Assembly (NCBI GenBank): GCA_964016885.1
Contig: CAXHJY010001737.1
Span: 112,046 to 176,045 of the forward strand
Origin: Eledone cirrhosa
Lineage: Eukaryota
Length of the DNA stretch: 64,000 nucleotides
Reading direction: 5' to 3'
The position numbers and the translations under genes were made by a program. The notes under the pieces are model-generated. The model saw nothing but the letters and a program-made list of their open reading frames with translations, was not told the origin of the DNA and did not search any database. This document shows positions 14,202-58,167 of the stretch, piece after piece; the stretch's first letter is position 1, and every line of letters begins with the position of its first letter.

Positions 14202-14791
14202 AATATGGATATATATATATATGTATATAAATATGTATATATATATGTATATATATATGGATGTATGTATAGTATATTTGATAATATACTGTATGTTTAA
14301 TTAAAAACATTTTGAAGACCGTTCACTATGTTTAATCAGCTCTTAAACATTACTGGAATTCTATAAGAATCTATCTTCTATAATTCTCAGCAGAAGTGCA
14401 GGAGTAAGTAGACTTGATAACCAATAATTAGCGAGAAACAGGACTGTCGATTACTCCCCTTCGTTTTTGCCGAGAATAAGTAAGTGACATAGTGACTACA
14501 TTAAAACTCATAGCGAATGGTCTTCAAGATGCTTTTAATGAAACATACAGTATATTATCAAATATACTATACATACATCGCTATTTCAGAGCACCAATAC
14601 TAATATATATATATATTAGATATACACTATATATGATGTTGTCCAAGGGAAAGGCAATGGCTGATACAGCTTGGCACCAGTGACATCACGAGTCATGTCT
14701 ACAGCTGAGTGAACTGGAGCAACGTGAAATAAAATGTCTTGCTCAAGGACACAACACAAAGCCTGGTTCGAGAATCGAAATCACAACCTTA
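13858..14791 (-). mobile_element. Fragmented SINE (pieces ~13858-14039 and ~14634-14791) interrupted by (TA)n and a family B relic
   Basis: Both pieces share gatgttgtccaa..ggc.gatacagcttggcaccagtgacatcac. The core ctggagcaacgtgaaataaaatgtcttgctcaaggacacaac matches the other SINEs. Confidence 0.65.
14268..14612 (+). mobile_element. Old diverged relative of the 310-bp family B, with inverted arm and decayed hammerhead
   Basis: About 14268-14330 and 14510-14600 are mutual inverted repeats similar to the family B monomer. Relic HHR gtagac-TTGATAA...GAAAC-AGGACT-GTC-gattac at 14408-14454. Confidence 0.6.
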
Positions 14792-18710: not shown

Positions 18711-18757
<47 letters not shown>

Positions 18758-19401: not shown

Positions 19402-19454
<53 letters not shown>

Positions 19455-20069: not shown

Positions 20070-20101
<32 letters not shown>

Positions 20102-21101
20102 TCACATATATATGTGCGCACACGTACATATATACACATACACACATATACACATAAACATATACATGTGCATACATGTACATACACACATATACCCACA
20201 TAGATACGAAGATAGACATATATATAGAGAGACATACATATATATACACATATATATATACACATACATACACACATACATATATATATATATATACACA
20301 CACACATACACGCCCACACACATATACACATATACACATATATATATATATACATATACACATATATATACACATGCATATATATACATATATATATATA
20401 TATACACACATATATATACACACAATCTTACATTCTTATTTGCATGCGCATATATGTATTTTTATATTCAGATATAAATACCCAAACATATATACACCTA
20501 CCTACATATATATTCATACATACACGCTTACAAACACAGATGATAATAGTATGGGGGAAAGGGGGGGGGGTTGGAGAAGGGGATTATAGTAAATATATGT
20601 TTCAAGAAACATAGAATATTATCTGTATCTGGATCCCAATATATGTTTTTACATAGTTTCAGTGTTAGGAAATACAAGAAATAAGGCAAAATTATGCATT
20701 TCAAAATAAGTATACCATTAATTATATGTTAACTAAACTAAAGATAGTTAACATATTGATTTCTAAGGTGTAAATTAGTTAGGTTTATAATATTTGAAGC
20801 AGAATTTTGAAGTTAAATAGTAGTAGAGTATTAATTATAGTATAACTAAATTAAAGTTATTAACGTTATGGTATCAATATTAGGAAATGAATTTAGTAAT
20901 AGGGAAAAAACAAATAAAGTATTACATCGATAGTAGAATATAAATTATAGGTTAACTAAATTAAAAATTATATATTAATTTCTATAGTATATGTTAATTA
21001 GGTATATAATAAATAAAACAGATATTGTATTTTATCAATAGCAGAATATAATTATATGCAAATAGAAATCAAAATTAATACATATACATATACATATACA
21101 T

Positions 21102-21164
<63 letters not shown>

Positions 21165-21656
21165 TACATACACATACATATACATACATACATATACATA
21201 TTTTTTCAAAAATTGCAAAGAATATATTAACTAGGTATACATCCAAAACACATCCCATTCTATGATTACATGACACTCTGCAATCCGTCTGTATAAGGAT
21301 ACTAATTTTAAGCCAATTAAATTAAATTTTTAGGTTGACTAAATTTAAAACCAAATTATAAATATATTTCTAAAATGTATATTAATTAGGTCTATAATAC
21401 TAAAAATTATTTCTCTGTCATTGGATACACGATATTTTGTTATATTTTATCTGTAAAGGAATTTTAATAAAAGGTTTAAATAAATTAAAATTAATCTATA
21501 AATTAAATTACTAAGTATATATTAGTAATATTTAAAGGTTTTTCACAATTTATGATTACACAATATTTTATATTCTCATCTGTAGTAGAATTTTAATTAA
21601 ATTAAATTTATAGGTTAACTAACATTTAAATTAAATTAATTTCTAAAATAATGTTA

Positions 21657-24934: not shown

Positions 24935-25426
24935 TAACATTATTTTAGAAATTAATTTAATTTAAATGTTAGTTAACCTATAAATTTAATTTAATTAAAA
25001 TTCTACTACAGATGAGAATATAAAATATTGTGTAATCATAAATTGTGAAAAACCTTTAAATATTACTAATATATACTTAGTAATTTAATTTATAGATTAA
25101 TTTTAATTTATTTAAACCTTTTATTAAAATTCCTTTACAGATAAAATATAACAAAATATCGTGTATCCAATGACAGAGAAATAATTTTTAGTATTATAGA
25201 CCTAATTAATATACATTTTAGAAATATATTTATAATTTGGTTTTAAATTTAGTCAACCTAAAAATTTAATTTAATTGGCTTAAAATTAGTATCCTTATAC
25301 AGACGGATTGCAGAGTGTCATGTAATCATAGAATGGGATGTGTTTTGGATGTATACCTAGTTAATATATTCTTTGCAATTTTTGAAAAAATATGTATATG
25401 TATGTATGTATATGTATGTGTATGTA

Positions 25427-25505
<79 letters not shown>

Positions 25506-26500
25506 ATGTATATGTATATGTATATATATTAATTTTGATTTCTATTTGCATATAATTATATTCTGCTATTGATAAAATACAATATCTGTTTTATTTATTA
25601 TATACCTAATTAACATATACTATAGAAATTAATATATAATTTTTAATTTAGTTAACCTATAATTTATATTCTACTACCGATGTAATACTTTATTTGTTTT
25701 TTCCCTATTACTAAATTCATTTCCTAATATTGATACCATAACGTTAATAACTTTAATTTAGTTATACTATAATTAATACTCTACTACTATTTAACTTCAA
25801 AATTCTGCTTCAAATATTATAAACCTAACTAATTTACACCTTAGAAATCAATATGTTAACTATCTTTAGTTTAGTTAACATATAATTAATGGTATACTTA
25901 TTTTGAAATGCATAATTTTGCCTTATTTCTTGTATTTCCTAACACTGAAACTATGTAAAAACATATATTGGGATCCAGATACAGATAATATTCTATGTTT
26001 CTTGAAACATATATTTACTATAATCCCCTTCTCCACCCCCCCCCCTTTCCCCCATACTATTATCATCTGTGTTTGTAAGCGTGTATGTATGAATATATAT
26101 GTAGGTAGGTGTATATATGTTTGGGTATTTATATCTGAATATAAAAATACATATATGCGCATGCAAATAAGAATGTAAGATTGTGTGTATATATATGTGT
26201 GTATATATATATATATGTATATATATGCATGTGTATATATATGTGTATATGTATATATATATATATGTGTATATGTGTATATGTGTGTGGGCGTGTATGT
26301 GTGTGTGTATATATATATATATATATGTGTGTATGTATGTGTATATATATATGTGTATATATATGTATGTCTCTCTATATATATGTCTATCTTCGTATCT
26401 ATGTGGGTATATGTGTGTATGTACATGTATGCACATGTATATGTTTATGTGTATATGTGTGTATGTGTATATATGTACGTGTGCGCACATATATATGTGA

Positions 26501-26536
<36 letters not shown>

Positions 26537-27143
26537 GTATATCTATGTGTGTATATATGTCTATATTCGTATGTGTATATATATATATATATTATTTATT
26601 ATTATAATATAACTTATGTGTATGTGTGTATATGTGAGGGTGTGTATATGTATATATATGTATATATATGTGTAAAAATATATATGTGTATGTGTGCTTT
26701 TTGTGTGTGTGTATATATATGTATGTATATATGTGTGTATGTGTGTGTTTGTATGTGTGTTTGTGGTTGTATGTGTGTGTGGGTGTATATATATAAATGT
26801 ATGTGTATATATATATATATATGTGTATATGTATCTCTATTAATGTGTGTATATATGTATATGTATATACCTTTTTCTTTGTATGTCTGAGTTGTGTGAG
26901 AGTGTAGTGGGTTTTATATGTATATACGCATATATGGATGCGTATGTATTTGTATATATGAGTATATGTAAGTGCGTATGTATGTATGAATATATATCTA
27001 TGTCTATGTATGAGTATATATGTGTGTGTATGTATGTTGTGTGTGTATGTATGTATGTGTCTATGTGTGTATATATATATATATATGTGTGTATATGTAT
27101 GTATGTATGTGTATGTATGTACATATATGTCTATGTATATGTG

Positions 27144-27182
<39 letters not shown>

Positions 27183-27699
27183 TTTTTTTATATATATGTG
27201 TGTGTGTGTATGTGTGTGTGTGTATATATATCTTTATATATGTGTATGTGTATGTTCGTGTAGGTGTATGTGTGTGTATGACTATATATGTATGTGTGTA
27301 TGTGTGTATGTATGTATATGTATGTGTGTGTACATGTATGTATGTGTATGTATATATATGTGTGTATATGTGTATGTATATATATATATATATATATGTG
27401 TATATATATATATATATGTATATGTATCTCTATTTGTATGTGTATATGTGTATAGGTATATACCTTTTTCTTTGTATGTCTGAGTTGTGTGAGAGTGTAG
27501 TGGTGTTTGTATGTATATACCGATATATGGATGCGTAAGTATTTGTGTGTATGTATGTATGTATGTCTGTATGTATTTGTGTGTATATATAGGTATGTAT
27601 GTGTATATCTGTATGTATATAAGTATGTATGTGTATGTATATGTGCGTGTATGTGTATATATATGTGTGTCTATATATGTATGTGTGATTATATGTGTA

Positions 27700-27732
<33 letters not shown>

Positions 27733-27832
27733 TTATATGTATGTGTGTATATGTGTGTATGTGTGTATATGTATATGTTTATATATGTGTGTGTATGTGT
27801 GTTCTAAGTGTAGATGTGTGTATATGTGTATG

Positions 27833-27897
<65 letters not shown>

Positions 27898-28518
27898 TTT
27901 CTTGATATATTTCTTTTTTCTTTTTTCTTTTTCTTTTCTTTCCTTTTTAATTTTTATTTTTTATTTCTTAGTTTATAGATACATCTATAAATAAGCAGTC
28001 TGCCCAAACCGTTGAATACTGACCTCTCCCCCCCTCCCACCTAATTTCTGTATCTTGATCTAGATGTGTGTGGCAGTGTTTATGTGAGTGAATTAATATC
28101 CATGTGCTTATGATAATATTATATCCACATATATATATGTGTGTGGGGGTGTGTGTGTGTATGTATGTTCGTAATTATGTGTATGTTTATGCATATACGC
28201 GCGCGTGTGTGTGAGTGTACGGATATGTGTGAGTATGAGAATATGTGTATACACTTATTTCATATTTATGTGTCTATACGCATCTTATCTGTGCATTATA
28301 AACTTACAGAGACATTAACCTTGAAATTTTGTATTTGCATGCATCTTTTTGGCATGCGTATGCATGTTGAGCATACATCTTTGTATAAATATGTGTACGG
28401 GGTAGTTACATGTATATACACACACCAAACTGCATAAAACCTTTTGTATTTTCATTGGTCAATTTTGTTCCCAAACGGACCTGAAATTTTGAATTGTTGT
28501 TATTATCAATAAATATAT

Positions 28519-30285: not shown

Positions 30286-30909
30286 TATTTTTATATCTTG
30301 TTATTGCCTCCTCCTTATTGAGGACGCCTTTTTATGTAAATTGTACTTGTCCCACTCTTTGATGCCCTGGTGGCAAATAAAAAGAAAGTTATCTATCTAT
30401 CTATCTATCTATCACCAGAGTATAGGTGAGGAAGATGAAAGATCAAGGGAGCACCCCCTCTCTGTGCTCCTGAGGAGAAGGGTTGCACACTTTTTTCGGG
30501 GGTGTGTGCGACCCCCCAAGGCGCCTCCTCCCTATTGAGGATTTTGTTATTAAATTTATTTTTGTTATATTTTATTTTATTTTTATATTTTGTTATTGCC
30601 TCCTCCTTATTGAGGACGCCTTTTTATGTAAACTCCCCCCATTGTACTTGTCCCACTTTTTGATGCCCTGGTGGCAAATAAAAAGAAAGTTATCTATCTA
30701 TCTATCTTGATAGAGTAAGACACGCTTCACATCGGCTCCGCTATTCCATCGGGATTTACCCTTACTATTGTAAGTACCGGATAAATTTTTCAGTGCAACA
30801 CATTTGGAACACTAACCCCTGTTATTTAGGGAAACATTTTTGCATTTACCCCCTTTTTAGGGGGTAAAATAAATATCTATTTTTGCCGAAAAATTTCTTT
30901 CTTGGCAGC

Positions 30910-32736
30910 ATGGCGGAAAAGATGGCAGACATGTCTGCCATTAGCTCTGCCACGCCCCCCAAGTCTGAAGAACAAAAAATAATTACAACAAAAGTAGACA
31001 ATGAAACAAACAAAGAAAATGAAAAAACAAATGTTAAGGAAAATGAGCAAACGGAAAACAAACAAACAGAAAATAATACAAATAACAACAGGGCAACTTT
31101 CGCCCAGAAAACAAAACAATCCATTACATACACACCAATTGACCTAACTGCCGCCAGAGAAAAACTGGCCGAAGCAAAGAAACACATTGTTTTGGGGGAG
31201 AACGGAATGTTTTCCATTAACTCCCCCCCAGAATTCAAGAAAGAACAGAGAACACAGTTCTCTTCAGAACTATACTGAACCAGACAAGAAAGCCAGCACA
31301 GCCCAGCCAAATGGAAATAGAGTTAGTCCTAAAAGACTATATGAAGAATATTCTCTTCATACGAAAGGAGCGACTCTATGGCAGCATTTCGGTCCTAACA
31401 AGTGACAAGGAAACGGCGGAGAAGCTTTCCCTAAGCCCACTCTCATCGACAACATACAGCTTCTATCCCTCCTACATGGGTAGAAGAACACAGAGAGTAA
31501 AAGTAAAAACAATGCTGCCCACAATGGACTTCTGGTGGGCTATTGCTGGCTTCATAGACATGGGCGAAGACACAATCCTGTCAATGGGGAAGGCAACTGG
31601 AGATGCGTTCCTGGGAATGGGCCTCGACATACTAGTCCAAATGAGGCCCGAAAGAATAGCACAAATCCCGGATCGCATCTGGCTGGATGACCTTACCCCA
31701 ATAGACATAATTGTAGAGGGGAGAAGACCAGCATGCTATTTATGCATGGAAAGGGGACACGTTAAGGCTAACTGCCCGAAACGTATCCCCCAAAAAGGAC
31801 TATTGCCCACACCCACCACAAACAGTACACCAACACCACCCACCTCCAAAAATACACTAATACCACACACAGCAAACAAAATACAGACACCACCAACCAC
31901 AAACACAACACAAACATCACCACCACCAGCACCAAACACAAGCACGACACAAAAATCACCACCACCAACCACAACACAAACATCACCACCACCATCACCA
32001 ACCACAAGCATGACACAAAAATAACCACCACCACCACAAAACCCATTCCAAACAAATAATAAAAAAAACAGTAACAAATCTACCCCTCCCGCAAAAAAAC
32101 AACAACCACACAACACGTCCCTCCCACCTAGCGCTGAAGAGTTTCCCCCAACTTCTGAAGAAGAAGGAGGAGAAGCCTTCAGACAAGTTAAAAGAAAAAA
32201 AAGAAAACACACACCCAGCACACCACAAATAACCCACACACAAACACCAACTCCAATCAAAAACACCCCACCCTCAACAAACAAAAATAAATCTGCGCCT
32301 CCCCTCTCCGAAACATTGACAGCATCACAAAAAAGACGTTGCAATACACATATATAAATAAAGAAAACAAAAAACTGGTTAAATTAATAAACAATAACCC
32401 TATGGTGCAGACCGAAGGGCCAAACTTTATCTCAACAGAGAACTTCACCCATTTAAAAATGATAAAGGTCCCTCTGGACCTTTATCGTTCCTTAAAAGAA
32501 CAATTTAGACGGGACGTGAGCCCCCCTGTTTAAAACCGTTGAATCGCGTCCTCTTGAAAGATTTCCCCATAACCGCCCCTCTCCCTGACACAACTCCAAA
32601 TACCCCAACCCCACCACACACGTGTACCCCCACACCACCACAAAACATCCCTCCACCCAACACACCTGATGCCATGGAAATTACGCAACCCGGAGAGGTA
32701 AGTGCTTTTCTTTCTTCACTTTCAACACCAAAATAG
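30910..32736 (+). pseudogene. LINE ORF1 (gag-like, CCHC zinc knuckle), disrupted
   Basis: ATG at 30910. CYLCMERGHVKANC knuckle and a Pro/Thr-rich tail. 4-bp deletion near 31243 and a premature stop at 32024 relative to copy 2. Confidence 0.8.
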
Positions 32737-35700
32737 ATCAATTGAGAGTTGGCTGTTTGAACGCGCGTGGCCTGGGCTCAGCTTGGAAGCAAGCAAAGCT
32801 TCTAAGTGACCTCAGGTCACAAAGTATAGATGTGATGGTTGTTTGCGAGAGTCGGATCAGCAGCGTGAGACAGCTGGCGCCCGCCTTCGATGACTTTGAG
32901 ATGCACGCATCTCTCTGTCAACCCGGAGGCGGGGGGGAGTTGCCGTACTGCTGGATCAACGTCTGACTCTCGACGTACAGATTGTTCACTCGGACCCGGG
33001 GAGTCGATTACTGGTGCTGGACGTCGGAGGCGGTGAAGGCGGGGCTTTCAGACTGGTCGGTCTTTATGCTCCCTTCGGGGCGGAAAGAGCCGACTTCTTC
33101 CAGCGTCTGGAGACTTTTCTAGGAACGTCGCGTTCCCTGCTTTTAGTGGGGGACTGGAATGGAATCCTAGATGCGCGTTGGGACTATGCAGGGGCATGTC
33201 CCGATAGAGGGGGGTGTAGCAGCCTCAAGGGGTTACTCGATCGATTCGACCTGGTCGATAGATTTCGACTAGATTGTCCAACTGCGCCAACCTGGACCTG
33301 GGCAAACCGCAGTGGACAATCTAGATCGTACCTAGATAGGTTTTTGGTTAGGAGTAAGGATAGGGACGTATTTAGTTGTCCAGAACTGATCATGGTTGGC
33401 TATTCAGATCACAAATTAGTGACCTGCGTGGTCAACCTTGATAGAACGCATAGACAGGGTCCCGGTTACTGGAAGATGAACTTGTCCTTGCCGACAAAGA
33501 AAGATTACAGAAACCGGATTAGTAGCTTAGTTAAGATGCGGTTGACGGGAGCGATCGTCAACAGTAGGTGGTGGGTATCTCTAAAGAGAGAGATTAGAGT
33601 AAGTTCGATAGGTTACAGTAAGGAACTAGCGACAAATAGAAATAGGAAGGAAAGGGAGTTAACAGATAAACTAGAAGAGGCGATTAGGAGCGGAGACGTA
33701 GCCAGAGTGTTAGCGGCGAGAACGGCGTTGAGCCAGTTCTTTGACGGGAAGCACGAAGGCTGCGTTGTCCGAAGTAAAATACGTGCGTTAGGAAACGAGG
33801 GGACCAAATCTGTTAGCTGGGCCCGCGTGACAGAAGCCAAGAGTGGGATTAAATCCACCATTCGGTCTTTGCGAGACCAGGATGGACGGGTGATCCTTGA
33901 ACCTGAGCGGATGTGCGAGGCCTTTCAAAGGCACTTTGCTCGACTGTTCGGAGGGGGCGGGGGGCCGGACGGGGATGTGGACTTCGGTCCATACCTCGAC
34001 AGTCTACCGCGTCTTTCGAGCGGCGAAGCGGAGTGCTGCGAAAGGCCAATCACAGCCACTGAAATCGGGGAAGCACTCAGCCAATGCAGCAGACGCAAAT
34101 CTCCGGGTCTCGATGGTCTACCATACGAACTTTATTTAGCTATGCCGGTCTTGTTCTCCGAACTCCTCGAGGCTGTCTATTGCAACTGGCAACAGAACGG
34201 GAAAATTCCCTGTTCTGTGACCAAGGGCGTGGTCACGCTAGTGAGGAAGGACGAGAGCAAGGGGGACGACTTAAGTAACTTTAGGCCCATAACTCTGCTG
34301 AATGCAGAGTTACAGATTTTGGCCAAAGTGTTGGCGAAGAGGTTGGCGCTTGTGGTGGGTGGTTTGGTGGGAGACGCGCAGACATGCGCTATCCCGTCCA
34401 GGTCCATTCACGACAACCTCCACCTCATGCGATACATCATAGAGAGGGTTGGCAACGAACCCGGCTTTGGTGGGGCCCTGATCAACTTGGATCAATCTAA
34501 GGCGTTCGATAGGGTCGACCATGGTTACCTGGATGCGGTGCTAGCGGCGGCGGGCTTCGGACCCGTTTTCAGGGGCTGGATTTCTGCCATGCACAGTGGC
34601 AACATCTACTCTAGGATTAAAGTAAACGGCTACCTCTCGGAGCCGTTTCAAATCACCCGGTCCATCAGGCAGGGGTGCCCCCCTCTCCTCCCTTCTGTAC
34701 GTACTGACTCTCGAGCCACTGCTGCGGAAGTTGGAGTTGCTGCGGGGCATACCCCTGGAACCGGGATTGCACAAAGCGGTCTCGGCCTATGCCGACGACG
34801 TAACAGTAATGGTGGCGGACGCCTCGGAAATCGGGGCGATCGCCACCCTACTGGGGGAATACGAAAGGCTGACGGGGGCTAGGCTGAACCAGGACAAGTC
34901 AGTCGGTTTGCAACTCGGAACGTGGAGGGGCAAACCGATGCCGTTAGACGGTGTCGTCGGGCGGTGGACGGAGGGCCCGGTGAAGCTGCTCGGGGTCTGG
35001 TTCGGACCGGACCTCCAGGTGGAGAAGAATTGGGGCGAGGTGACGAGCAGGGTGTTTGCGCTGACCCAGAAGTGGGCCAAGTGCAAACTATCACTGAAAG
35101 GTGGGGCGGAGGTGACGAACGCTGACATAGCGTCCGTCATCTGCTACCGCCTGACCGTTGTGCCTTGCCCCAAGGAAAAGATCACCATCATGGAACGCAT
35201 GCTCTTCCAGTTCCTCTGGAAGAAGCGGCCTCCCATGGTGAGGAGATCCATCTGCTGCCAGAACCCTTCGAAAGGAGGGCTGGGTATGCCGTGGCTGTTG
35301 ATGCGTAGGCACGCATTGAGGCTACGGCATCTACAAGTATTCCTCAACGGTCAGCCGGTGTGGGCCCCGTTTGTGAGGCGAGCCTTCCCACAGCTCGTCT
35401 CGCTCACCGAACTGCAATCCTGTGTGAAGCAAAGACCGAGAAAACTGGGCAACTGGCACACCGAGTGTGCCCAGGCGCTCACGGCTATCTGGCAAGCGGA
35501 CCCGACTATCAGTGGAGAATCCACCTCGACATTCTATAGAGGGTTGGTGGCTAGCAAGGGCGACGACACCCTTGGAGAGTCGCTAGGCATGGAGGAGGAC
35601 GAACTGGCCAGCCTGTTCGGTAGAACTTTCGGCCCGGGACCCATGGACAACTTCCAGAGGTCCCTAGCCTGGCAGTGTTACCGAGGGGCTCTGCCCGTTC

Positions 35701-36170
35701 GAGAAAAGCTCTACAGACACGGGCGCCCGGGCAGGGATCCCGCGAAAAAGATCTGCCCCAGATGCGTGCGCGACGAGGAAACCGTTGCGCATGCACTGGT
35801 ACACTGCCCGGGCGTTGCCGATCTGTGGGGCTACGTCGAACGACTGCTGTCGCGTGTGGCGCCGATTCGATTAACCGCCGAGTCTGTGGTGAACATCAAG
35901 CCGCCTCCTCCCTTCAGAAATGAAGCAGAGGCGGTCTTTCTGTGCGTAATAGCCATGATGAAAGAGGTTGTGTGGTGGACGCGCCTGAAAGGTCTGAGGT
36001 CGGGTGACTTTCTCTCCGGCCATCACCTGGTTTACTTCTTCCGATACCACTTCGGAAGAAGGATCAGGATGGAGAGAGAAGTGCTTGGCCCCAGACAGTT
36101 TTATGAAAGGTGGGTGAAAGAAGCGAGAATGGCCCGTGTAAATGGGCCTTCTCTCTACATTGTTCTGTAG
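32733..36170 (+). pseudogene. LINE ORF2: APE endonuclease, reverse transcriptase and C-terminal zinc finger; frameshifted
   Basis: LNARG, GDWN, SYLDRF, YSDH (APE). PGLDG, FRPITLLN, LDQSKAFDRVDH, IRQGCP, YADD (RT). CPRC...ETVAHALVHC. Frameshifts near 32935 and 34685. Confidence 0.93.
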
Positions 36171-37034
36171 GTGAAGAAGTGAAGAGGAAAGGGGGAGCGC
36201 CTCCTCTCTGGGCTTCCCCCGCGAAAAGAGTTGCACACTTTTCGGGGGTATGTGCAATCCCCAACACGCCCCCTCCCTTTTGAGGACTTTTTATTGTTAT
36301 ATTATTATTGTTATTCCTTTTTTCTTTACTCGATTTATGTAAACTCCCCCACTGTGTAAATGTCCCCTTCTTTTGTGCCCTCGTGGCAAATAAATAGACA
36401 TTTATCTATATTTTTATATCTTGTTATTGCCTCCTCCTTATTGAGGACGCCTTTTTATGTAAATTGTACTTGTCCCACTCTTTGATGCCCTGGTGGCAAA
36501 TAAAAAGAAAGTTATCTATCTATCTATCTATCTATCACCAGAGTATAGGTGAGGAAGATGAAAGATCAAGGGAGCACCCCCTCTCTGTGCTCCTGAGGAG
36601 AAGGGTTGCACACTTTTTTCGGGGGTGTGTGCGACCCCCCAGGGCGCCTCCTCCCTATCGAGGATTTTGTTATTAAATTTATTTTTGTTATATTTTATTT
36701 TATTTTTATATTTTGTTATTGCCTCCTCCTTATTGAGGACGCCTTTTTATGTAAACTCCCCCCATTGTACTTGTCCCACTTTTTGATGCCCTGGTGGCAA
36801 ATAAAAAGAAAGTTATCTATCTATCTATCTTGATAGAGTAAGACACGCTTCACATCGGCTCCGCTATTTCATCGGGATTTACCCTTACTATAGTAAGTAC
36901 CGGATAAATTTTTCAGTGCAACACATTTGGAACACTAACCCCTGTTATTTAGGGAAACATTTTTGCATTTACCCCCTTTTTAGGGGGTAAAATAAATATC
37001 TATTTTTTTGCCGAAAAATTTCTTTCTTGGCAGC

Positions 37035-38857
37035 ATGGCGGAAAAGATGGCAGACATGTCTGCCATTAGTTCTGCCACGCCCCCCAAGTCTGAAGAACAA
37101 AAAATAATTACAACAAAATTAGACAACGAAACAAACAAGGAAAATGAAAAAACAAATGTTAAGGAAAATGAGCAAACGGAAAACAAACAAACAGAAAATA
37201 ATACAAATAACAACAGGGCAACTTTCGCCCAGAAAACAAAACAATCCATAACATACACACCAATTGACTTAACCGCCGCCAGAGAAAAACTGGCCGAAGC
37301 GAAAAAACAAATAGTCTTGGGGGAGAACGGAATGTTTTCCATTAACTCCCCCCCAGAATTCAAGAAAGCCAGAACAGAGAGCACAGTTCTCTTCAGAACT
37401 ATACTGAACCAAACAAGAAAGCCAGCACAGCCCTGCCAAATGGAAATAGAGTTGGTCCTAAAAGACTATATGAAGAATATTCTCTTCATACGAAAGGACC
37501 GACTCTATGGCAGCATTTCGGTCTTAACAAAAGACAAGGAAACGGCGGAGAAGCTTTCCCTAAGCCCACTCTCATCGACAACATACAGCTTCTATCCCTC
37601 CTACATGGGTAGAAGAACACAGAGAGTAAAAGTAAAAACAATGCTGCCCACAATGGACTTCTGGTGGGCTATTGCTGGCTTCATAGACATGGGCGAAGAC
37701 ACAATCCTGTCAATGGGGAAGGCAACTGGAGATGCGTTCCTGGGAATGGGCCTCGACATACTAGTCCAAATGAGGCCCGAAAGAATAGCACAAATCCCGG
37801 ATCGCATCTGGCTGGATGACCTTACCCCAATAGATATAATTGTAGAGGGGAGCATGCTATTTATGCATGGAAAGGGGACACGTTAAGGCTAACTGCCCGA
37901 AACGTATCCCCCAAAAAGGACTATTGCCCACACCCACCACAAACAGTACACCAACACCACCCACCTCCAAAAATACACTAATACCACACACAGCAAACAA
38001 AATACAGACACCACCAACCACAAACACAACACAAACATCACCACCACCAGCACCAAACACAAGCACGACACAAAAATCACCACCACCAACCACAACACAA
38101 ACATCACCACCACCATCACCAACCACAAGCACGACACAAACATTACCACTACCACCACAAAACCCATTCCAAACAAATAATAAAAAAAAACAGTAACAAA
38201 TCTACCCCTCCCGCAAAAAAAACAACCACACAACACGTCCCTCACACCTAGCGCTGAAGAGTTTCCCCCAACTTCTGAAGAAGAAGGAGGAGAAGCCTTC
38301 AGACAAGTTAAAAGAAAAAAAAGAAAACACACACCCAGCACACCACAAATAACCCACACACAAACACCAACTCCAATCAAAAACACCCCACCCTCAACAA
38401 ACAAAAATAAATCTGCGCCTCCCCTCTCCGAAACATTGACAGCATCACAAAAAAAGACGTTGCAATACACATATATAAATAAAGAAAACAAAAAACTGGT
38501 TAAATTAATAAACAATAACCCTATGGTGCAGACCGAAGGGCCAAACTTTATCTCAACAGAGAACTTCACCCATTTAAAAATGATAAAGGTCCTTCTGGAC
38601 CTTTATCGTTCCTTAAAAGAACAATTTAGACGGGACGTGAGCCCCCCTGTTTAAAACCGTTGAATCGCGTCCTCTTGAAAGATTTCCCCATAACCGCCCC
38701 TCTCCCTGACACAACTCCAAATACCCCAACCCCACCACACACGTGTACCCCCACACCACCACAAAACATCCCTCCACCCAACACACCTGATGCCATGGAA
38801 ATTACACAACCCGGAGAGGTAGGTGCTTTTCTTTCTTCACTTTCAACACCAAAATAG
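37035..38857 (+). pseudogene. LINE ORF1, copy 2 (disrupted)
   Basis: Homologous to 30910-32736. A small deletion at ~37850 frameshifts the zinc knuckle. Confidence 0.8.
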
Positions 38858-40376
38858 ATCAATCGAGAGTTGGCTGTTTGAACGCGCGTGGCCTGGGCTC
38901 AGCTTGGAAGCAAGCAAAGCTTCTAAGTGACCTCAGGTCACAAAGTATAGATGTGATGGTTGTTTGCGAGAGTCGGATCAGCAGCGTGAGACAGCTGGCG
39001 CCCGCCTTCGATGACTTTGAGATGCACGCATCTCTCTGTCAACCCGGAGGCGGGGGGGGGGGAGTTGCCGTACTGCTGGATAAACGTCTGACTCTCGACG
39101 TACAGATTGTTCACTCGGACCCGGGGGGTCGATTACTGGTGCTGGACGTCGGAGGCGGTGAAGGCGGGGCTTTCAGACTGGTCGGTCTTTATGCTCCCTT
39201 CGGGGCGGAAAGAGCCGACTTCTTCCAGCGTTTGGAGACTTTTCTAGGAACGTCGCGTTCCCTGCTTTTAGTGGAGGACTGGAATGGAATCCTAGATGCG
39301 CGTTGGGACTATGCAGGGGCATGTCCCGATAGAGGGGGGTGTAGCAGCCTCAAGGGGTTACTCGATCGATTCGACCTGGTCGATAGATTTCGACTAGATT
39401 GTCCAACTGCGCCAACCTGGACCTGGGCAAACCGCAGTGGACAATCTAGATCGTACCTAGATAGGTTTTTGGTTAGGAGTAAGGATAGGGACGTATTTAG
39501 TTGTCCAGAACTGATCATGGTTGGCTATTCAGATCACAAATTAGTGACCTGCGTGGTCAACCTTGATAGAACCCGTTTGTGAGGCGAGCCTTCCCACAGC
39601 TCGTCTCGCTCACCGAACTGCAATCCTGGGTGAAGCAAAGACCGAGAAAACTGGGCAACTGGCACACCGAGTGTGCCCAGGCGCTCACGGCTATCTGGCA
39701 AGCGGACCCGACTATCAGTGGAGAATCCACCTCGACATTCTATAGAGGGTTGGTGGCTAGCAAGGGCGACGACACCCTTGGAGAGTCGCTAGGCATGGAG
39801 GAGGACGAACTGGCCAGCCTGTTCGGTAGAACTTTCGGCCCGGGACCCATGGACAACTTCCAGAGGTCCCTAGCCTGGCAGTGTTACCGAGGGGCTCTGC
39901 CCGTTCGAGAAAAGCTCTACAGACACGGGCGCCCGGGCAGGGATCCCGCGAAAAAGATCTGCCCCAGATGCGTGCGCGACGAGGAAACCGTTGCGCATGC
40001 ACTGGTACACTGCCCGGGCGTTGCCGATCTGTGGGGCTACGTCGAACGACTGCTGTCGCGTGTGGCGCCGATTCGATTAACCGCCGAGTCTGTGGTGAAC
40101 ATCAAGCCGCCTCCTCCCTTCAGAAATGAAGCAGAGGCGGTCTTTCTGTGCGTAATAGCCATGATGAAAGAGGTTGTGTGGTGGACGCGCCTGAAAGGTC
40201 TGAGGTCGGGTGACTTTCTCTCCGGCCATCACCTGGTTTACTTCTTCCGATACCACTTCGGAAGAAGGATCAGGATGGAGAGAGAAGTGCTTGGCCCCAG
40301 ACAGTTTTATGAAAGGTGGGTGAAAGAAGCGAGAATGACCCGTGTAAATGGGCCTTCTCTCTACATTGTTCTGTAG
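38855..40376 (+). pseudogene. LINE ORF2, copy 2: endonuclease joined out of frame to the C-terminal region, RT deleted
   Basis: ORFs 38878-39582 (APE) and 39579-40376 (zinc-finger region). Confidence 0.88.
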
Positions 40377-40820
40377 GTGAAGAAGTGAAGAGGAAAGGGG
40401 GAGCGCCTCCTCTCTGGGCTTCCCCCGCGAAAAGAGTTGCACACTTTTCGGGGGTATGTGCAATCCCCAACACGCCCCCTCCCCTTTGAGGACTTTTTAT
40501 TGTTATATTATTATTGTTATTCCTTTTTTCTTTACTCGATTTATGTAAACTCCCCCACTGTGTAAATGTCCCCTTCTTTTGTGCCCTCGTGGCAAATAAA
40601 TAGAAATTTATCTAATCTACCAATAGCATGTTTATACACACACACTCAAACACACACACACATTTACATAAATCTACATACACACACGCTTATACACAAA
40701 TGCATATACATATACGTACATATATATATGCATAGACACATACACATAGACACACATATACACACACATATATATATATATACACACATATAAACACTCA
40801 CACACATATACATATATATG

Positions 40821-43520: not shown

Positions 43521-44012
43521 TGGTCTCAGGTGGTTTGGTATGAAAAAGGTTGACAGAAACTGTCAAAAACCCATTAATTATCCCCTCTTACATTACTTTT
43601 CTCCTACACATCATTTACTCGTCTATTATCTGACCTTTCAACACGTGACAAACCAGTAATTATAGGGGGGGTGTTCTATATATACACATATAACCTTAGC
43701 AATGTCATCTCACTTCACAGGTCAGTAAAACATGTAAATTCTCCCCGACACAATCAGCAAGTAAAATGGCGGTCTTTTCTGTTGAGTCATCGACAATGGG
43801 GAAAGTTGCATGATGGGATAGGTTAAACTGCGTCGTTGTATTTGTTGCGTGTAACTCAATCAGGTGGAGATGGAGGTTATGTCCGTAATTACTGTGCTTG
43901 ATAAATGTATGTATGTGCATGTGTCAATATTCGTGTATGTGTGTGAAAAAAAAAATATATACACACCTATATATAGAGAGGTAGATATATATATACAGAC
44001 ACACATACACAC

Positions 44013-44067
<55 letters not shown>

Positions 44068-44201
44068 CATATATAGTTAATAAATGAAACTAAACAAACA
44101 CAGGATGCAAAATTACACAGCTATATTAGTTTCACGCTTACATACATGAGTGTGTGTATATATACATAAGTATATATATATATATGTGTATATGTGTGTG
44201 T

Positions 44202-44232
<31 letters not shown>

Positions 44233-44282
44233 AGTGCGTAATTCTATCTACAGATATATATTTATACAACATATATTGAGAT

Positions 44283-44472
44283 TGGCGTAATCGTTAGAGC
44301 GCCAGCCAAAATGTTTTGTTATGTTTATTCCAGATCTTCTTAGTCCAAATCCTCGTGAGGTCAACTTTACCTTTCATCCTTACGCTATCATCAATATAAA
44401 GCACCAGTAATAAACTGATGGTTGATTTAATCGACTTTCCCCTCCTCCCTTCAAATTTCTGGCCTTGTGCCG
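44283..44472 (+). mobile_element. Degenerate tRNA-derived SINE
   Basis: tggcgtaatcgttag...gtcaactttacctttcatcct...ctggccttgtg; homologous to 9843-10006. Confidence 0.65.
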
Positions 44473-44874
44473 TCACTGACTACGCAACCACCAGGTTTTG
44501 AATGCGCGTGTGTATGTATAAATATATATATATATTATAAAACATGTCTATAGAATCACTAGATAAAATATATACCGTTCCCTCTCCCAATTAGCATAAT
44601 TAACCATATAAAAAATCAATTAGACCAAGCTATAAGAATAAAGGCTCCTATGAAGAAATCTCCGACAAATAACCGAAAGCAGCCCCTTCGCGGTGGTTAC
44701 GACGGAATATTTATCGAACATTTCGACAGCATGTATGAATCGACCAGATATACAGTCAACTAAACACAATTAGGTGTAAAATGAACTTAGAAGAAATGTG
44801 TACATATTTAATTATCTCTACCATGGTTTCGTCCGTATTTTAAGACATCCGATAACAGGGGACATCCAGAGCTT

Positions 44875-44958
<84 letters not shown>

Positions 44959-45070
44959 TAGAATATTCGAAAATATTCTGTATGTTTATAATAAACATTT
45001 TGAAGACCTAATCGCTATAGAATAGAATACGTCACGTATTACAATTAGATTCTCGATAAAAGCAAGGGAA

Positions 45071-45113
45071 GTAATCTACGCGTTTCATTCTTGTTAGAAT
45101 TCATCAGGACTAC
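45071..45113 (-). ncRNA. Minimal type I hammerhead ribozyme (family B, 1 of 5)
   Basis: Minus strand GTAGTC-CTGATGA-ATTCT-aaca-AGAAT-GAAAC-GC-GTA-GATTAC, with palindromic stem III ACGCGT. Confidence 0.92.
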
Positions 45114-45380
45114 ATATCCAGTGCTTTTATCGAGAATGACACAGCTAGAGACTTATAGAATACTTAGCTGTGTACTGGAACTGGTTTGAAAGAGCGGTTG
45201 CCGGTCCGGCAGAAATTAGAAATTGGAATAAATGCTCTGAAATAGCGATATATATGTGAGTATAGACATAGAATATTCGAAAATATTCTGTATGTTTATA
45301 ATAAACATTTTGAAGACCTAATCGCTATAGAATAGAATACGTCACGTATTACAATTAGATTCTCGATAAAAGCAAGGGAA

Positions 45381-45423
45381 GTAATCTACGCGTTTCATTC
45401 TTGTTAGAATTCATCAGGACTAC
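45381..45423 (-). ncRNA. Minimal type I hammerhead ribozyme (family B, 2 of 5)
   Basis: Identical to 45071-45113, offset +310. Confidence 0.92.
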
Positions 45424-45690
45424 ATATCCAGTGCTTTTATCGAGAATGACACAGCTAGAGACTTATAGAATACTTAGCTGTGTACTGGAACTGGTTTGAA
45501 AGAGCGGTTGCCGGTCCGGCAGAAATTAGAAATTGGAATAAATGCTCTGAAATAGCGATATATATGTGAGTATAGACATAGAATATTCGAAAATATTCTG
45601 TATGTTTATAATAAACATTTTGAAGACCTAATCGCTATAGAATAGAATACGTCACGTATTACAATTAGATTCTCGATAAAAGCAAGGGAA

Positions 45691-45733
45691 GTAATCTACG
45701 CGTTTCATTCTTGTTAGAATTCATCAGGACTAC
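45691..45733 (-). ncRNA. Minimal type I hammerhead ribozyme (family B, 3 of 5)
   Basis: Identical, offset +620. Confidence 0.92.
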
Positions 45734-46000
45734 ATATCCAGTGCTTTTATCGAGAATGACACAGCTAGAGACTTATAGAATACTTAGCTGTGTACTGGAA
45801 CTGGTTTGAAAGAGCGGTTGCCGGTCCGGCAGAAATTAGAAATTGGAATAAATGCTCTGAAATAGCGATATATATGTGAGTATAGACATAGAATATTCGA
45901 AAATATTCTGTATGTTTATAATAAACATTTTGAAGACCTAATCGCTATAGAATAGAATACGTCACGTATTACAATTAGATTCTCGATAAAAGCAAGGGAA

Positions 46001-46043
46001 GTAATCTACGCGTTTCATTCTTGTTAGAATTCATCAGGACTAC
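46001..46043 (-). ncRNA. Minimal type I hammerhead ribozyme (family B, 4 of 5)
   Basis: Identical, offset +930. Confidence 0.92.
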
Positions 46044-46310
46044 ATATCCAGTGCTTTTATCGAGAATGACACAGCTAGAGACTTATAGAATACTTAGCTG
46101 TGTACTGGAACTGGTTTGAAAGAGCGGTTGCCGGTCCGGCAGAAATTAGAAATTGGAATAAATGCTCTGAAATAGCGATATATATGTGAGTATAGACATA
46201 GAATATTCGAAAATATTCTGTATGTTTATAATAAACATTTTGAAGACCTAATCGCTATAGAATAGAATACGTCACGTATTACAATTAGATTCTCGATAAA
46301 AGCAAGGGAA

Positions 46311-46353
46311 GTAATCTACGCGTTTCATTCTTGTTAGAATTCATCAGGACTAC
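46311..46353 (-). ncRNA. Minimal type I hammerhead ribozyme (family B, 5 of 5)
   Basis: Identical, offset +1240. Confidence 0.92.
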
Positions 46354-46390
46354 ATATCCAGTGCTTATATATATATATATATATATATAT

Positions 46391-46578
46391 AACGGAGGAA
46401 ATGTGGTAAGGAACCAGGTGGACCATAACGTACTCAATACTTAGGGTAGTAGAGTGGGTAATAGGAACGAGTAAGACCCCGACGGCTGAGCTCAAGCCGT
46501 TTCGGCGGCTAATTCTTGGTCCAGAATTAGCCGTCGAAACGGCTTGAGCTCAGCCGTCGGGGTCTTACTCCTTCCTAT
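46391..46578 (-). mobile_element. Palindromic half-hammerhead element, family D
   Basis: Homologous to 13271-13478; axis at ~46519. Confidence 0.75.
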
Positions 46579-46606
46579 ATATATATATATGTGTTTGTGA
46601 CTGTGA

Positions 46607-46737
46607 GTCCCAGGTTCAATCGCGGCTAACGACAGTTAGTAATATATTCAATACATTAGTAGCGAGTAAACAAGTTTAATATAGAACAGGCTGAAACATT
46701 CCAAGTCTTGTAGAAGCCATTTCTATATTAAACTTGA
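46607..46737 (-). mobile_element. Degenerate family C element
   Basis: tcccaggttcaatcg...tcaatacattagtag...gtagaagccatttctatattaaac. Confidence 0.55.
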
Positions 46738-46862
46738 CGCATACCAACCAGAAATTTTGTAATAAATAGAAGTGAAAACCAACAGGTACGTGTGGTGGTC
46801 TTTGGGAGGGTCATGCTGCCAATAAGAACACACGCACCTGTCATGTCTTTTATCTATAACAT

Positions 46863-46932
46863 CTCTATCTGACGACCGATCCAGACGTATATATTATTAT
46901 CGTCTGTGATCCAGAAACCTTTGGTAATGGAG
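46863..46932 (+). ncRNA. Type I hammerhead ribozyme (family E)
   Basis: CTCTAT-CTGACGA-ccgatc-CAGACG..CGTCTG-tgatcca-GAAAC-C-ttt-G-GTA-ATGGAG. Two mismatches at the stem II base. Confidence 0.7.
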
Positions 46933-46992
46933 TAGTTATATTTTGTGTTGTTCATTTTCTAATTATGTATATATATATATATATATATATAT

Positions 46993-47186
46993 AACGAAGG
47001 AAATGTGGTAAGGAACCAGGTGGACCATAACGCACCAAAGTACTCAATACTTAGGGTAGTAGAGTGGGTAATAGGAACGAGTAGGACCCCGACGGCTGAG
47101 CTCAAGCCGTTTCGACGGCTAATTCTGGGAATTCCAGAATTAGCCGTCGAAACGGCTTGAGCTCAGCCGTCGGGGTCCTACTCGTT

Positions 47187-47190
<4 letters not shown>
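46993..47190 (-). mobile_element. Palindromic half-hammerhead element, family D
   Basis: Near-perfect ~120-bp palindrome 47071-47190; axis at ~47130. Confidence 0.78.
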
Positions 47191-47261
<71 letters not shown>

Positions 47262-47393
47262 ATGTGTGTGTGTATGTAAAAGGTAAATAGAAATAACAAC
47301 ACAATCGGTAGAGTATATGGAAAGAATATATATATAGTTTTCTAGTTAGCTTGAAGCATTGTTGAATAGGAAACACAAATTTAAATTCTGAAA

Positions 47394-47452
<59 letters not shown>

Positions 47453-47714
47453 TATATATATATAAGCAAGTATTGCACCAAGAAAAATAAAACGTCGGCG
47501 TGAAGAGATTATGGATTTATTTGCTTTGGGATATGTTTCTGTGTCTACTACAATCGTCTACATATGCTGACTACAATATATATTGTTCAATCATATGCAA
47601 TACTTAATTATTTATTACACTTTTTCAGAAAGCCTATAGTAGTGGAATTCAACTATTCACTACGAGGTAGAGTTCAATAATTGCCGTATATATATATATA
47701 TATATATGGCAATT

Positions 47715-47885
47715 TGTTTTGCAAGATTTTTTATATGAAATCGTATGTTGAAACAAATGTTTTTATATTTGGGGAGGGTCATGTTGTTATATTGCCAGAA
47801 ATATATAGTAAAACAGTGAGAGTGTTTTACCATATATTTCTGGCAATATTATAACAATATGACCCTACCCAAATCTAACAATATA
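47715..47885. mobile_element. Short palindrome made of the terminal sequence of the PLE family at 56165-57143
   Basis: tttggggagggtcat...tattgccagaa / ttctggcaatatt...atgaccctacccaaa matches ~56205-56262 and ~57090-57143. Confidence 0.65.
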
Positions 47886-48095
47886 TATATATCCCGAGTC
47901 CTGTATTTTCGTTGCTCTGGTGATGCGGCTGGACTACCGATCGCTATATTTGATTTGCTAAGCTGTCTAAACGTATTGTTATTACTCTGGGGTACTTTTC
48001 CCCATCCGAGTGCTAAAGCTACATACCGAATTTGCATTCGTTAGCTTGGCCGCGAACTAAAGCTTCGTTAATGCTGTACTAAAATTTATATATAT

Positions 48096-55080: not shown

Positions 55081-55410
55081 TATAGAAATGGCTTCTACAA
55101 GACTAGAACTGTTTCATTCAAAAGAAATTACCAGGAACTGATGATTTCATGCAAATGAGTTAATTCTAGTCTTGTAGAAGCCATTTCTATATTAAACATG
55201 AGTAATGTATTGAGTACCTTACTTACTGTGGTTACCCCCGATAGAACCCGACACTCATATGTACACACACAGACACATATATGTACATCCCGAGTTAAAT
55301 CAGGCGGGGTGTAGGTAACCACAGTAAGTAGGGTACTCAATACATTAGTAGAGTGTAAACATCAATATTTAAAATAGAAATAGCTTCTACAGGACTAGAA
55401 CTGTTTCATA
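55081..55410. mobile_element. Two family C pieces (palindrome plus tail, then an inverted partial copy)
   Basis: Palindrome ~55081-55192 retaining CTGATGA at 55138. The tail gtattgagtaccttacttactgtggttacc has an inverse at ~55315-55410. Confidence 0.65.
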
Positions 55411-55446
55411 TGTTAAGGCAATTGATGGTCTTATATATATATATGT

Positions 55447-55643
55447 AGGAAAATGTATGACCCTGACGGCAGAGCTCAAGCCGTTTCGACGGCTATTTCT
55501 GGAGTTCAGAAATAGCCGTCAGAACGGCTTGAAGCGCTGTCGTCGGGGGTCATACATTTTCCTATTACCCACTCTACTACCCTAAGTATTGAGTACTCTG
55601 GTGCGTCATGGTCCATCTGGTTCCTTACCACACTTCCTTCGTT
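55447..55643 (+). mobile_element. Diverged family D palindromic element
   Basis: gagctcaagccgtttcgacggctatttctgg/cagaaatagccgtc...attacccactctactaccctaagtattgagtac. Confidence 0.7.
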
Positions 55644-55657
55644 TTATATATATATAT

Positions 55658-56143
55658 CCTCAGCATTCTCGTGTAGCACCCATCCACCATCTGAGTGAGT
55701 TTCTTGGTCAGTGTCCTAGTCTCAGACCCATACAGCAGCACAGACTCCACTACAGCAATGAAGAGGCGGATTATTCAGGTCTTTACGAAGGTCCGACTTC
55801 CACACCGATCTCAAGCTGTGGCACTGAACATTAATCAGTATACAATGAGGATGAAAAACTCAGAGCTGTATGGGAGCCCCCCAAAAGTCAGCTCAAAAGT
55901 GACACAGAGGAGACTGAGGTTAGCTGGACAAGCTCACCGACATCCAGAGTTGACATTGCACTCAGTGCTCCTTTGGGAGCCCCTACATGGACACACTAGA
56001 AGAGGAAGACCAAGGTTAACGTATGTTGATGCCCTAAGGACAGACACTGGTCTGTTGGAGACGCAGGACATGGCAGCGATAATGAGGGACAGAGACCGCT
56101 GGAGAGAACTCGTCCATGGATCTCGGGAATTTTACCCGCCTTA
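55658..56143 (+). pseudogene. RTE-clade LINE 3' fragment with inverted 5' segment
   Basis: 55819-56143 is nearly identical to 48583-48907. The minus strand of 55658-55818 encodes the adjacent upstream peptide IRLFIAVVESVLLYGSETRTLTKK...DGCYTRMLR. Confidence 0.82.
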
Positions 56144-56164
56144 GAATATATATATATATATATA

Positions 56165-57137
56165 GTTTTGCGAGGTTTTTTATATGAAATCGTGTGTCGA
56201 AACAAATATTGTTATACTTGGGGAGGGTCATATTTGTCATATTTGTGTAATATTGCCAGAATTAATAACAGAACACACTCACTGTTTGGTTGTAAAACTA
56301 GAAGCGTAGTCTATAGCATAAGATGTACAGAGGGTACTTGCAGAAACATGACAACAACATACATAGGGGAGACAGCTCGTAGTATAGGTGAAAGGATAGA
56401 CCAACACTGGGGGGAACTAAAAGGACGAAAAAACGGGTCAGTACTATACGAACATGCTAGACAACAACATGACGGTAACATAGACAACATAGAAATTAGA
56501 ATAATATCTAAACATAGAAATGACGCAGCAGATAGGCAAATCAGAGAGGCCAGTGAAATAGAAATTAGAAGACCACGACTAAACAGAAAGAATGAATGGA
56601 ATAACAACAACACCCAAACAAACAACACTGACCTAAGAGAAGTATAAATAAGTAAATAAAATAAAATAAATAAATAAATAAATACATACACAAGCACAAT
56701 AACAACAAGCACATAAACACACACTAGTCACCCATCGCACAGGAAACAAAACACTATACACACACGCAAACGCATGCGCAAAGAAGACAAAATAAAATAA
56801 ACAAAACAAGCAAATAAATAAATAAATATATAGACAGACTGAATAAAAATGGCGTAGACATACAATACAACAGGAGGAAAAGATAGCACCACTGACGATG
56901 TTGGATGTGCAACGAAAGATTTATGATAAACTATATATATGTGTTTGCGTCTATATTGTATCTGTATTATTTTTGACCGTCGGTCAGTCAATGGCAACAT
57001 TGAGGACCGAGTAAGTTAGATTACCGATATAAAAGACACAGAAGCGAGAAGCGAAAACCAACCAAACAGTGAGTGTGTTCTGTTATTAATTCTGGCAATA
57101 TTACACAAATATGACAAATATGACCCTCCCCAAGTAT

Positions 57138-57143
<6 letters not shown>
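56165..57143 (+). mobile_element. 5'-truncated Penelope-like element (different family) with inverted terminal segment
   Basis: About 56207-56291 is the reverse complement of ~57060-57143. It contains a GIY-YIG coding remnant and is flanked by (TA)n. Confidence 0.8.
56291..56647 (+). pseudogene. PLE GIY-YIG endonuclease remnant (CCHH type)
   Basis: CKTRSVVYSIRCTEGTC...YIGETARSIGERIDQH...LYEHARQQH...RQIREASEI...PRLN. Confidence 0.85.
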
Positions 57144-57208
<65 letters not shown>

Positions 57209-57904: not shown

Positions 57905-58030
57905 GTTAAGTATTTCCGAAGAAAAAGCAAAGGAAAAAAACAGTGCTCTATGAATAGAACAGAGCTATTTAATTAGAAAGTAAAACAACACAATATATAA
58001 CTACTCCATTACTAAAGATCGTTCATCAGC

Positions 58031-58096
58031 CTGTCTGATGAACGATCTAGACGTATGTTAATATCGTCTAGGGTCCTGAAACCTTTGGTAATGGAG
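58031..58096 (+). ncRNA. Type I hammerhead ribozyme (family E) inside a fold-back element ~57971-58128
   Basis: ctgt-CTGATGA-acgatc-TAGACG..CGTCTA-gggtcct-GAAAC-C-ttt-G-GTA-atgg. The left arm is an inverted, internally deleted copy. Confidence 0.72.
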
Positions 58097-58123
58097 TAGT
58101 TCTATATTGTGTTGTCCACTTTC

Positions 58124-58167
<44 letters not shown>

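Follow-up and report, generated by a model that had tools for sequence, protein, structure and literature searches.

A young hammerhead retrozyme family in Eledone cirrhosa with two-armed insertions suggestive of Penelope-like reverse transcription

An array of identical 310-bp units

The window, by which we mean the whole 64,000-nucleotide stretch of DNA analysed, holds a tandem array with a period of 310 and no mismatches over 44951-46366 (1416 bp, or 4.57 units). The original prediction saw here about 4.6 identical, non-coding 310-bp monomers inside (TA)n, and the sequence agrees. The longest ATG frame within the unit is 30 aa, with no RT and GIY-YIG ORF, and a tRNA search over 44000-47500 found none. 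The GC content is 0.32 (44001-46000), and the array ends adjoin (TA)n directly, with no LTR flanks. When unit positions are numbered from the base directly 3' of the predicted ribozyme cut (position 1), the insertion has its 5' end at position 261 and its 3' end at position 126. The features of the locus are as follows.

44878..44950, no strand: (TA)n target on the side of the element's 3' end (from the sequence)
44951..46366, minus strand: one-armed retrozyme insertion of 4.57 identical 310-bp units (period match and unit mapping)
45049..45137, minus strand: hammerhead 1 with extended stem I (sequence and fold), predicted cut 45077/45076
45077..45386, minus strand: cut-to-cut monomer of 310 nt, predicted circular RNA (branched fold, z = -4.4)
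45222..45261, minus strand: start zone in the unit, positions 126-165 (family 3' ends: short 121-139, long 159-170)
45359..45447, minus strand: hammerhead 2, identical, predicted cut 45387/45386
45669..45757, minus strand: hammerhead 3, identical, predicted cut 45697/45696
45979..46067, minus strand: hammerhead 4, identical, predicted cut 46007/46006
46289..46366, minus strand: hammerhead 5, core and stem I complete, long stem shortened by the insertion's 5' end
46367..46390, no strand: (TA)n target on the side of the element's 5' end, with no second arm following (from the sequence)

The five hammerhead cores lie on the minus strand at 45077-45107, 45387-45417, 45697-45727, 46007-46037 and 46317-46347. 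Each has a 6-bp stem I (GUAGUC/GAUUAC, including one G-U), the core CUGAUGA, stem II (AUUCU/AGAAU with the loop AACA) and then GAAAC-GC-GUA, and the predicted cut at 45077/45076 recurs at 310-base steps. This type I anatomy and the cut site had been read correctly in the original prediction. The five hammerheads had also been called identical; all five cores are indeed present, but the fifth lacks most of the 5' arm of a long stem that had been overlooked. In hammerhead 1, stem I (45108-45113 with 45071-45076), the core (45101-45107), stem II (45087-45100) and GAAAC-GC-GUA (45077-45086) are extended by an internal loop and an extra 16-bp stem, in which 45122-45137 pairs with 45049-45064. Stems I and II form when the 96-nt ribozyme region is folded (z = -6.65), and none of 200 shuffles is equally stable. 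Rfam assigns all five copies weakly to Hammerhead_HH9, with 23 bits and an E of 0.027, under the gathering score of 52. A loose hammerhead core pattern has 16 matches in the window against 1.19 expected. Rfam miRNA matches near the array, also under their gathering scores, were rejected as hairpin or microsatellite noise.

The label 'minimal' that these hammerheads had been given does not fit. As defined in the text of PMC4209133, a min-HHR has no helix III or loop 3, a helix II of 7-8 bp and a helix I of 4-5 bp, and the canonical metazoan type I has a 6-bp helix I, a 4-5-bp helix II, a 2-bp helix III and a palindromic loop. Because its helix I is 6 bp, its helix II 4-5 bp and its helix III 2 bp, the window hammerhead is excluded from the min-HHR class and is canonical metazoan type I by these definitions. 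The short palindromic helix III of the canonical type is thought to act in dimers (PMC4209133).

A large and very young family

Searched in the 3.0-Gb assembly, the monomer proves to belong to a large dispersed family. A 16-mer spanning the cut site occurs exactly 7779 + 7331 = 15,110 times and its reversed control 0 times, and the monomer itself has at least 439 matches in the 40 of 113 candidates scored, with copies over many contigs. The first 100 matches to the 16-mer on contig C1 form 16 loci over 36 Mb; therefore, by extrapolation, roughly 1,300-2,400 loci may be present genome-wide. Differences within arrays amount to about 2 per 10,000 bases, and by this measure the 310-nt family is very young. 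On all sequence criteria tested, the repeat is a non-LTR retrozyme. A search with the left flank for an empty allele returned only itself at full length among the 40 of 2104 candidates scored. Intermediate 310-unit subfamilies, about 95% identical or with 308-nt units, are seen at L050 (185-1037), L169 (720-1100) and L069 (1-1482). Some of their copies adjoin young copies, or copies of a sister family B, within one (TA)n.

Two divergent arms with paired 3' ends

We mapped 51 fetched loci and the window copy by script and tallied the counts by hand from the output. Twenty loci were chosen by full identity, 11 by a 3' end at 159, and 20 from the 31 matches with a 3' end at 139; the first 16 loci along contig C1 served as an unselected check. 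The main feature of the family, missed by the original prediction, is that a typical insertion has two divergent arms with two fixed end sites. Two-armed insertions account for 18/20 of the identity-chosen loci, 9/11 of those with a 3' end at 159 (L054 and L055 being set aside as rearranged duplicates) and 18/20 of those with a 3' end at 139. The one-armed copies in this set are L047, L049, L090, L094 and the window copy. Along contig C1, 11 of the 16 loci are two-armed, 3 are one-armed and 2 are unresolved (an assembly gap and an older subfamily). The window copy, with a short-site arm only, is of the rarer, one-armed form.

At all two-armed loci the 5' ends of the arms meet, mostly with 0-4 bases in common, and the 3' ends look out onto (TA)n. 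In 55 of the 56 two-armed loci, a 3' end at 121-139 in one arm is paired with a 3' end at 159-170 in the other; these are 44/45 of the script-mapped loci (hand tally, long ends at 159-169) and 11/11 of the unselected ones. Three 3' ends become 130 after allowing for the 127T variant. The exception to the pairing is L036, which has ends at 139 and 115 and arms of differing haplotypes. The stretch between the short and long 3' ends corresponds to a PLE-type tail (PLE, Penelope-like element). Arms reach about 17 units (L056, L086). The 5' ends are scattered: 1 of 95 lies no more than 5 nt from the cut, where about 3 would be expected, and no junction scars at the cut site were found in the script-mapped loci. 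Eighteen 5' ends lie at positions 15-36, at the long stem, against about 7 expected for this range, which was picked post hoc. In the window, a target duplication is masked by (TA)n. L183, the sole non-microsatellite two-armed site examined, lies in non-repetitive AT-rich DNA and has a 12-15-bp direct repeat on both sides.

Two loci about 450 kb apart on contig C3, L054 and L055, have common flanks and hold 30.9 and 2.6 units, respectively; therefore, unit number also changes after insertion. L054/L135 and L055 lie in a duplicated region in which the inverted arm is kept in one copy only. A 39-nt foreign stretch at the end of L055 was considered as a clue to a partner element and rejected, being a PLE fragment of the target that is whole at the duplicated site.

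Ribozyme variation and an older sister family

A lack of core conservation in other copies was one of the outcomes that would have spoken against the original prediction. The core is unchanged in the fixed haplotypes of the young family and covaries in the sister family. Among the fixed variants, all of which leave the invariant core intact, 276 turns an A-U of stem I into G-U, 284 falls on the free N7, 294 and 295 are in loop II, and 20 creates a G-U pair in the long stem. Variant 287, the common form, puts a U-U at the foot of stem II; at 10.1-11.1, U-U takes the place of a pair in 11 of the 13 distinct rows. No double changes in any stem were found within the young family (13 distinct rows). 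The window also holds a copy of family B.

14260..14605, plus strand: decayed two-armed family B copy, sharing about 71% identity with the 310 unit across some 160 bp

This copy has a hammerhead with a U3-A8 core at about 14378-14476. Family B is an older sister, with a unit of about 330 nt and 2700 candidates genome-wide. Its copies (L062-L081) mostly have one to two units, and several have an inverted arm and both kinds of 3' end. Eleven copies were aligned, a non-random sample made up of the best matches to the window copy, and in these the C3-G8 of the 310-family core is replaced by U3-A8 (U3 in 11/11, A8 in 10/11), a known core covariation (PMC4209133). In addition, stem II of family B has CGCU/AGCG in place of UUCU/AGAA, which makes two double changes, and stem III is longer and ends GUC. 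The ribozyme covariation thus comes from a comparison of two families, and these compensatory changes lend indirect support to the predicted self-cleavage.

Haplotypes and the number of templates

In an alignment of 10 unselected two-armed loci (L170 left out), which represent six haplotypes, the two arms of every locus have the same ribozyme region; under independent draws the chance of such agreement is roughly 1e-7. In the script-mapped set, arm haplotypes agree at 11 of 12 informative loci and disagree at L036. A two-template reading based on L036 was rejected as a rule, with 1 discordant locus against 11 + 10 concordant ones. Within an insertion, every unit carries the same fixed variants, even those seen at a single locus (L051, L086, L092, L101). 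Examples are 14T in L051, 163T in 8/8 units of L101 and, in L086, a unit length of 311 nt in about 19 units. Since such variants fill every unit, a monomer bottleneck is indicated. Counted over about 455 units, single-unit differences number about 32, none of them common to both arms; by a rough estimate, about 10 would be shared if the sources were linear arrays of equal load. Because both arms have the same haplotype, variants are fixed and no single-unit difference is shared between arms, each insertion most likely derives from one template that went through a monomer stage. Alternatively, the matching arms could reflect expression of one haplotype per germ cell. Of the roughly 10 variants fixed in the young family, 3 are A>G on the RNA strand, an ambiguous sign of RNA editing.

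Three sequencing runs under other organism labels each hold one 340-letter contig (310+30, closed-loop-like), which was considered as a sign of expression. These contigs were set aside as evidence because two of the runs hold the genome's abundant PLE at low depth, which fits trace DNA; in the third there is no cover, which proves nothing. The loop is itself uninformative, since a tandem array yields the same one.

Penelope-like elements and the search for a partner

Published work on PLEs, as far as the cited texts were available, describes much of the same anatomy. A Poseidon PLE, when purified, acts on both DNA strands of AT-rich sites, nicking and extending each, and begins at two internal RNA sites, the spacing of which equals the 30-40-bp tail (PMC11167929). 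For PLE insertion in vitro, hammerhead cleavage is dispensable and uncut RNA is the main substrate (PMC11167929). PLEs have frequent inverted 5'-truncated copies, a one-sided tail and a (TA)n bias (PMC8557442). Because the 310 family has the inverted copy, the one-sided tail, two start sites and the (TA)n bias, its mobilisation by a PLE is well supported at the level of sequence. The retrozyme identity, recent origin and PLE involvement that the original prediction proposed are thus backed by genome-wide copies, paired ends and haplotypes.

As a candidate helper, the genome has an abundant RT/GIY-YIG family of PLE-like type, for which a first look gave 52,974 candidates and whose open frames reach 1119 aa. 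Pfam gives 0 families for a 1079-aa PLE frame, and the Atlas puts the RT-EN part of this frame with RT/GIY-YIG clusters at 0.96-0.97. A non-exhaustive search showed no visible sequence match between the 3' end of the candidate helper and the 310 unit, and found no autonomous PLE sharing sequence with that unit. A partner search that used 30 3' ends of the sister family, and a GIY-YIG codon motif across 168 loci, led to one candidate that was examined, L163, and this was rejected as a neighbouring element.

The two-armed layout is also seen in the window's PLE remnants. Positions 56130-57145, together with L132 2098-5457, represent a two-armed remnant of a very abundant PLE-like family, which has a C-terminal GIY-YIG, a 44-nt tail on one arm and a hammerhead-like motif in its 3' repeat. 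Some copies of this family have long open frames and an Asn-rich insert, and are missed by Pfam. The PLE-like insertion at 21200-25560 is palindromic and two-armed, with frames for RT and endonuclease and with arms that look near-identical by eye. The microsatellite-rich blocks at 18590-20520 and 25990-27970 mirror each other around it, which suggests a palindrome of about 10 kb. Short, hairpin-like (TA)n insertions, with one arm longer, occur at 46390-46580, 46990-47190, 47700-47890, 55090-55400 and 55440-55650; these resemble two-armed stubs left by PLE 3' ends and produce spurious miRNA matches.

Other repeats of the window include a second hammerhead repeat between (TA)n at 6264-7306 (plus strand), also present at 11055 and 12864, with a 422-bp unit in 2.5 copies (97% match) and one CUGACGA...GAAAC-UA-GUA core per full unit. 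A further hammerhead-like family, at 58000-58130 and 46860-46970, has a long stem II ending about 45 nt before (TA)n. Two partly duplicated LINE copies with frameshifted endonuclease and RT frames occupy 30850-40380.

A model of insertion and its alternatives

We consider it probable, at roughly 65%, that the 310 array is a non-LTR retrozyme whose insertion came about through twin-primed reverse transcription by a PLE enzyme, with a circular monomer as the likely template. In this model, arrays would be transcribed in the hammerhead strand, and adjacent hammerheads would pair via the palindrome ACGCGU and cleave as a dimer. A host ligase would then close the monomer, and we propose that poor folding of a lone 2-bp helix III keeps the closed form stable. 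A PLE protein dimer would nick both strands of AT-rich DNA about 12-15 bp apart, with one cDNA beginning at 121-139 and the other at 159-170. Both cDNAs would go round the circle several times and join at their far ends. One-armed copies such as that in the window may result from failure or loss of one cDNA. We lean, a little less firmly, towards seeing the arrays as direct genomic records of two PLE RTs circling one self-made RNA circle simultaneously, each primed by one strand of the staggered cut. Several observations count against the insertion model proposed here: the preference for uncut RNA in vitro (PMC11167929), the U-U at 10.1-11.1, L036 and L054/L055. In addition, 1 of 9 Xenopus retrozyme dimers cleaved in the text of bioRxiv 10.64898/2026.07.22.740005.

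Rolling-circle copying of a circle, put forward in the original prediction, is favoured as the probable route. A non-integer, identical array by itself cannot tell a circle from a linear multimer. Twin-primed PLE insertion from a long uncut array transcript, with a hammerhead inherited from the PLE end and dispensable for spread, would account equally well for the two arms, the paired ends, the common haplotype and the target duplication. Uncut RNA being the main PLE substrate in vitro (PMC11167929) speaks for it, and long source arrays exist (30.9 units in L054). Yet daughters could then only be shorter than their sources, and a new mutation would still need a monomer step to fill all units, as it has in at least 12 fully fixed haplotypes. 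Moreover, none of about 32 single-unit variants is shared between arms where the rough expectation is about 10, and the ribozyme covaries between two families. We regard this explanation as unlikely. The preference for a circle over an uncut multimer rests on the monomer bottleneck, the lack of arm-shared single-unit variants and the clean cut junctions.

Local tandem growth of short PLE-style copies by slippage or unequal crossover, along the lines of the available text of bioRxiv 10.64898/2026.07.22.740005, appears improbable. Many insertions have two multi-unit arms of unrelated length, each of which would need its own expansion, in-array differences are only about 2 in 10,000 bases, and the unit carries no flanking DNA. 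Some growth of this kind would nevertheless agree with the change in unit number at L054/L055 after insertion, with L054 variants that come in blocks (278C in 7/29) and with sister family B having mostly one to two units.

Other reverse transcriptases are known to jump from the end of one template to the next, which lends support to the idea that multimers were built by such jumping on cut linear monomers. L036, with its two haplotypes, also fits. However, the cut junctions have no scars, 5' ends do not pile up there (1/95) and each insertion has one haplotype, which makes this explanation very improbable. Finally, assembly artefact is hardly credible as the source of the identical or palindromic arrays, even with the window on an unplaced contig and with long inverted repeats assembling poorly: junction, lengths and haplotype are individual to each locus, short ends pair with long ones, a target duplication exists, and a separate read set carries the unit at great depth.

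Comparison with known systems

In coral, mussel and axolotl, non-LTR retrozymes and their circles have been described, and a PLE has been proposed to carry out rolling copying (PMC7229834, PMC7761336). The texts consulted propose a circle template and a PLE helper for the movement of animal retrozymes and do not demonstrate them; PMC7761336 states that animal retrozymes have no motif that points to their partner, and the words 'inverted' and 'rolling' have 0 occurrences in the main text of PMC7229834. The 2026 preprint, as far as its text was available, ties retrozymes to PLE ends by phylogeny and favours satellite-like local growth (bioRxiv 10.64898/2026.07.22.740005). We found no description of two-armed, two-site retrozyme insertions in the titles and abstract openings of the literature searched. 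The kind of element is already known, and its two-armed, two-site footprint was not found in that literature.

This footprint of PLE integration makes the proposed retrozyme life cycle testable. Because the family is young (about 2 differences per 10,000 bases), the whole footprint is, by extrapolation, kept at well over a thousand loci. An existing in vitro PLE assay could draw on the family for its precise start sites, a template and candidate enzymes. The family also has a bearing on the question of why PLE insertions have an inversion and a tail on one side. If two RTs did travel on one circle, the enzyme class and the template that move animal retrozymes would be named, and the inverted-plus-tail structure of PLEs would be routine twin priming on a single RNA.

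Like metazoan non-LTR retrozymes in the texts cited, the 310 family has a non-coding tandem unit within 150-450 bp with one canonical type I hammerhead each, a low GC content (<50%), no LTR and a target duplication of more than 4 bp. A PLE as mobiliser and a circle as template have been proposed for them, and our reading is alike. Their circles have been demonstrated; that of the 310 family is predicted. Unlike the retrozymes described in those texts, an insertion of the 310 family usually consists of two divergent arms whose 3' ends are fixed and paired and which have a single haplotype.

The family shares with endonuclease-bearing PLEs, as the cited texts describe them, the inverted 5'-truncated copy, a 30-40-nt tail at one end and two internal start sites (PMC11167929, PMC8557442), as well as AT-rich or (TA)n targets and a hammerhead upstream of the start sites (PMC11167929, PMC8557442, PMC4209133). 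The U3-A8 core variant found here in family B is known in PLEs (PMC4209133). Unlike these PLEs, the 310 family has no ORF, and its arms consist of many identical units. In LINE-1 twin priming, two primers on one RNA lead to an inverted insertion with a target duplication. The L1 arms begin at the poly(A), and each corresponds to its own part of a linear RNA, with no overlap. In the 310 family, by comparison, each arm begins at one of two fixed internal sites and passes through the complete unit repeatedly, and inverted insertions are the norm.
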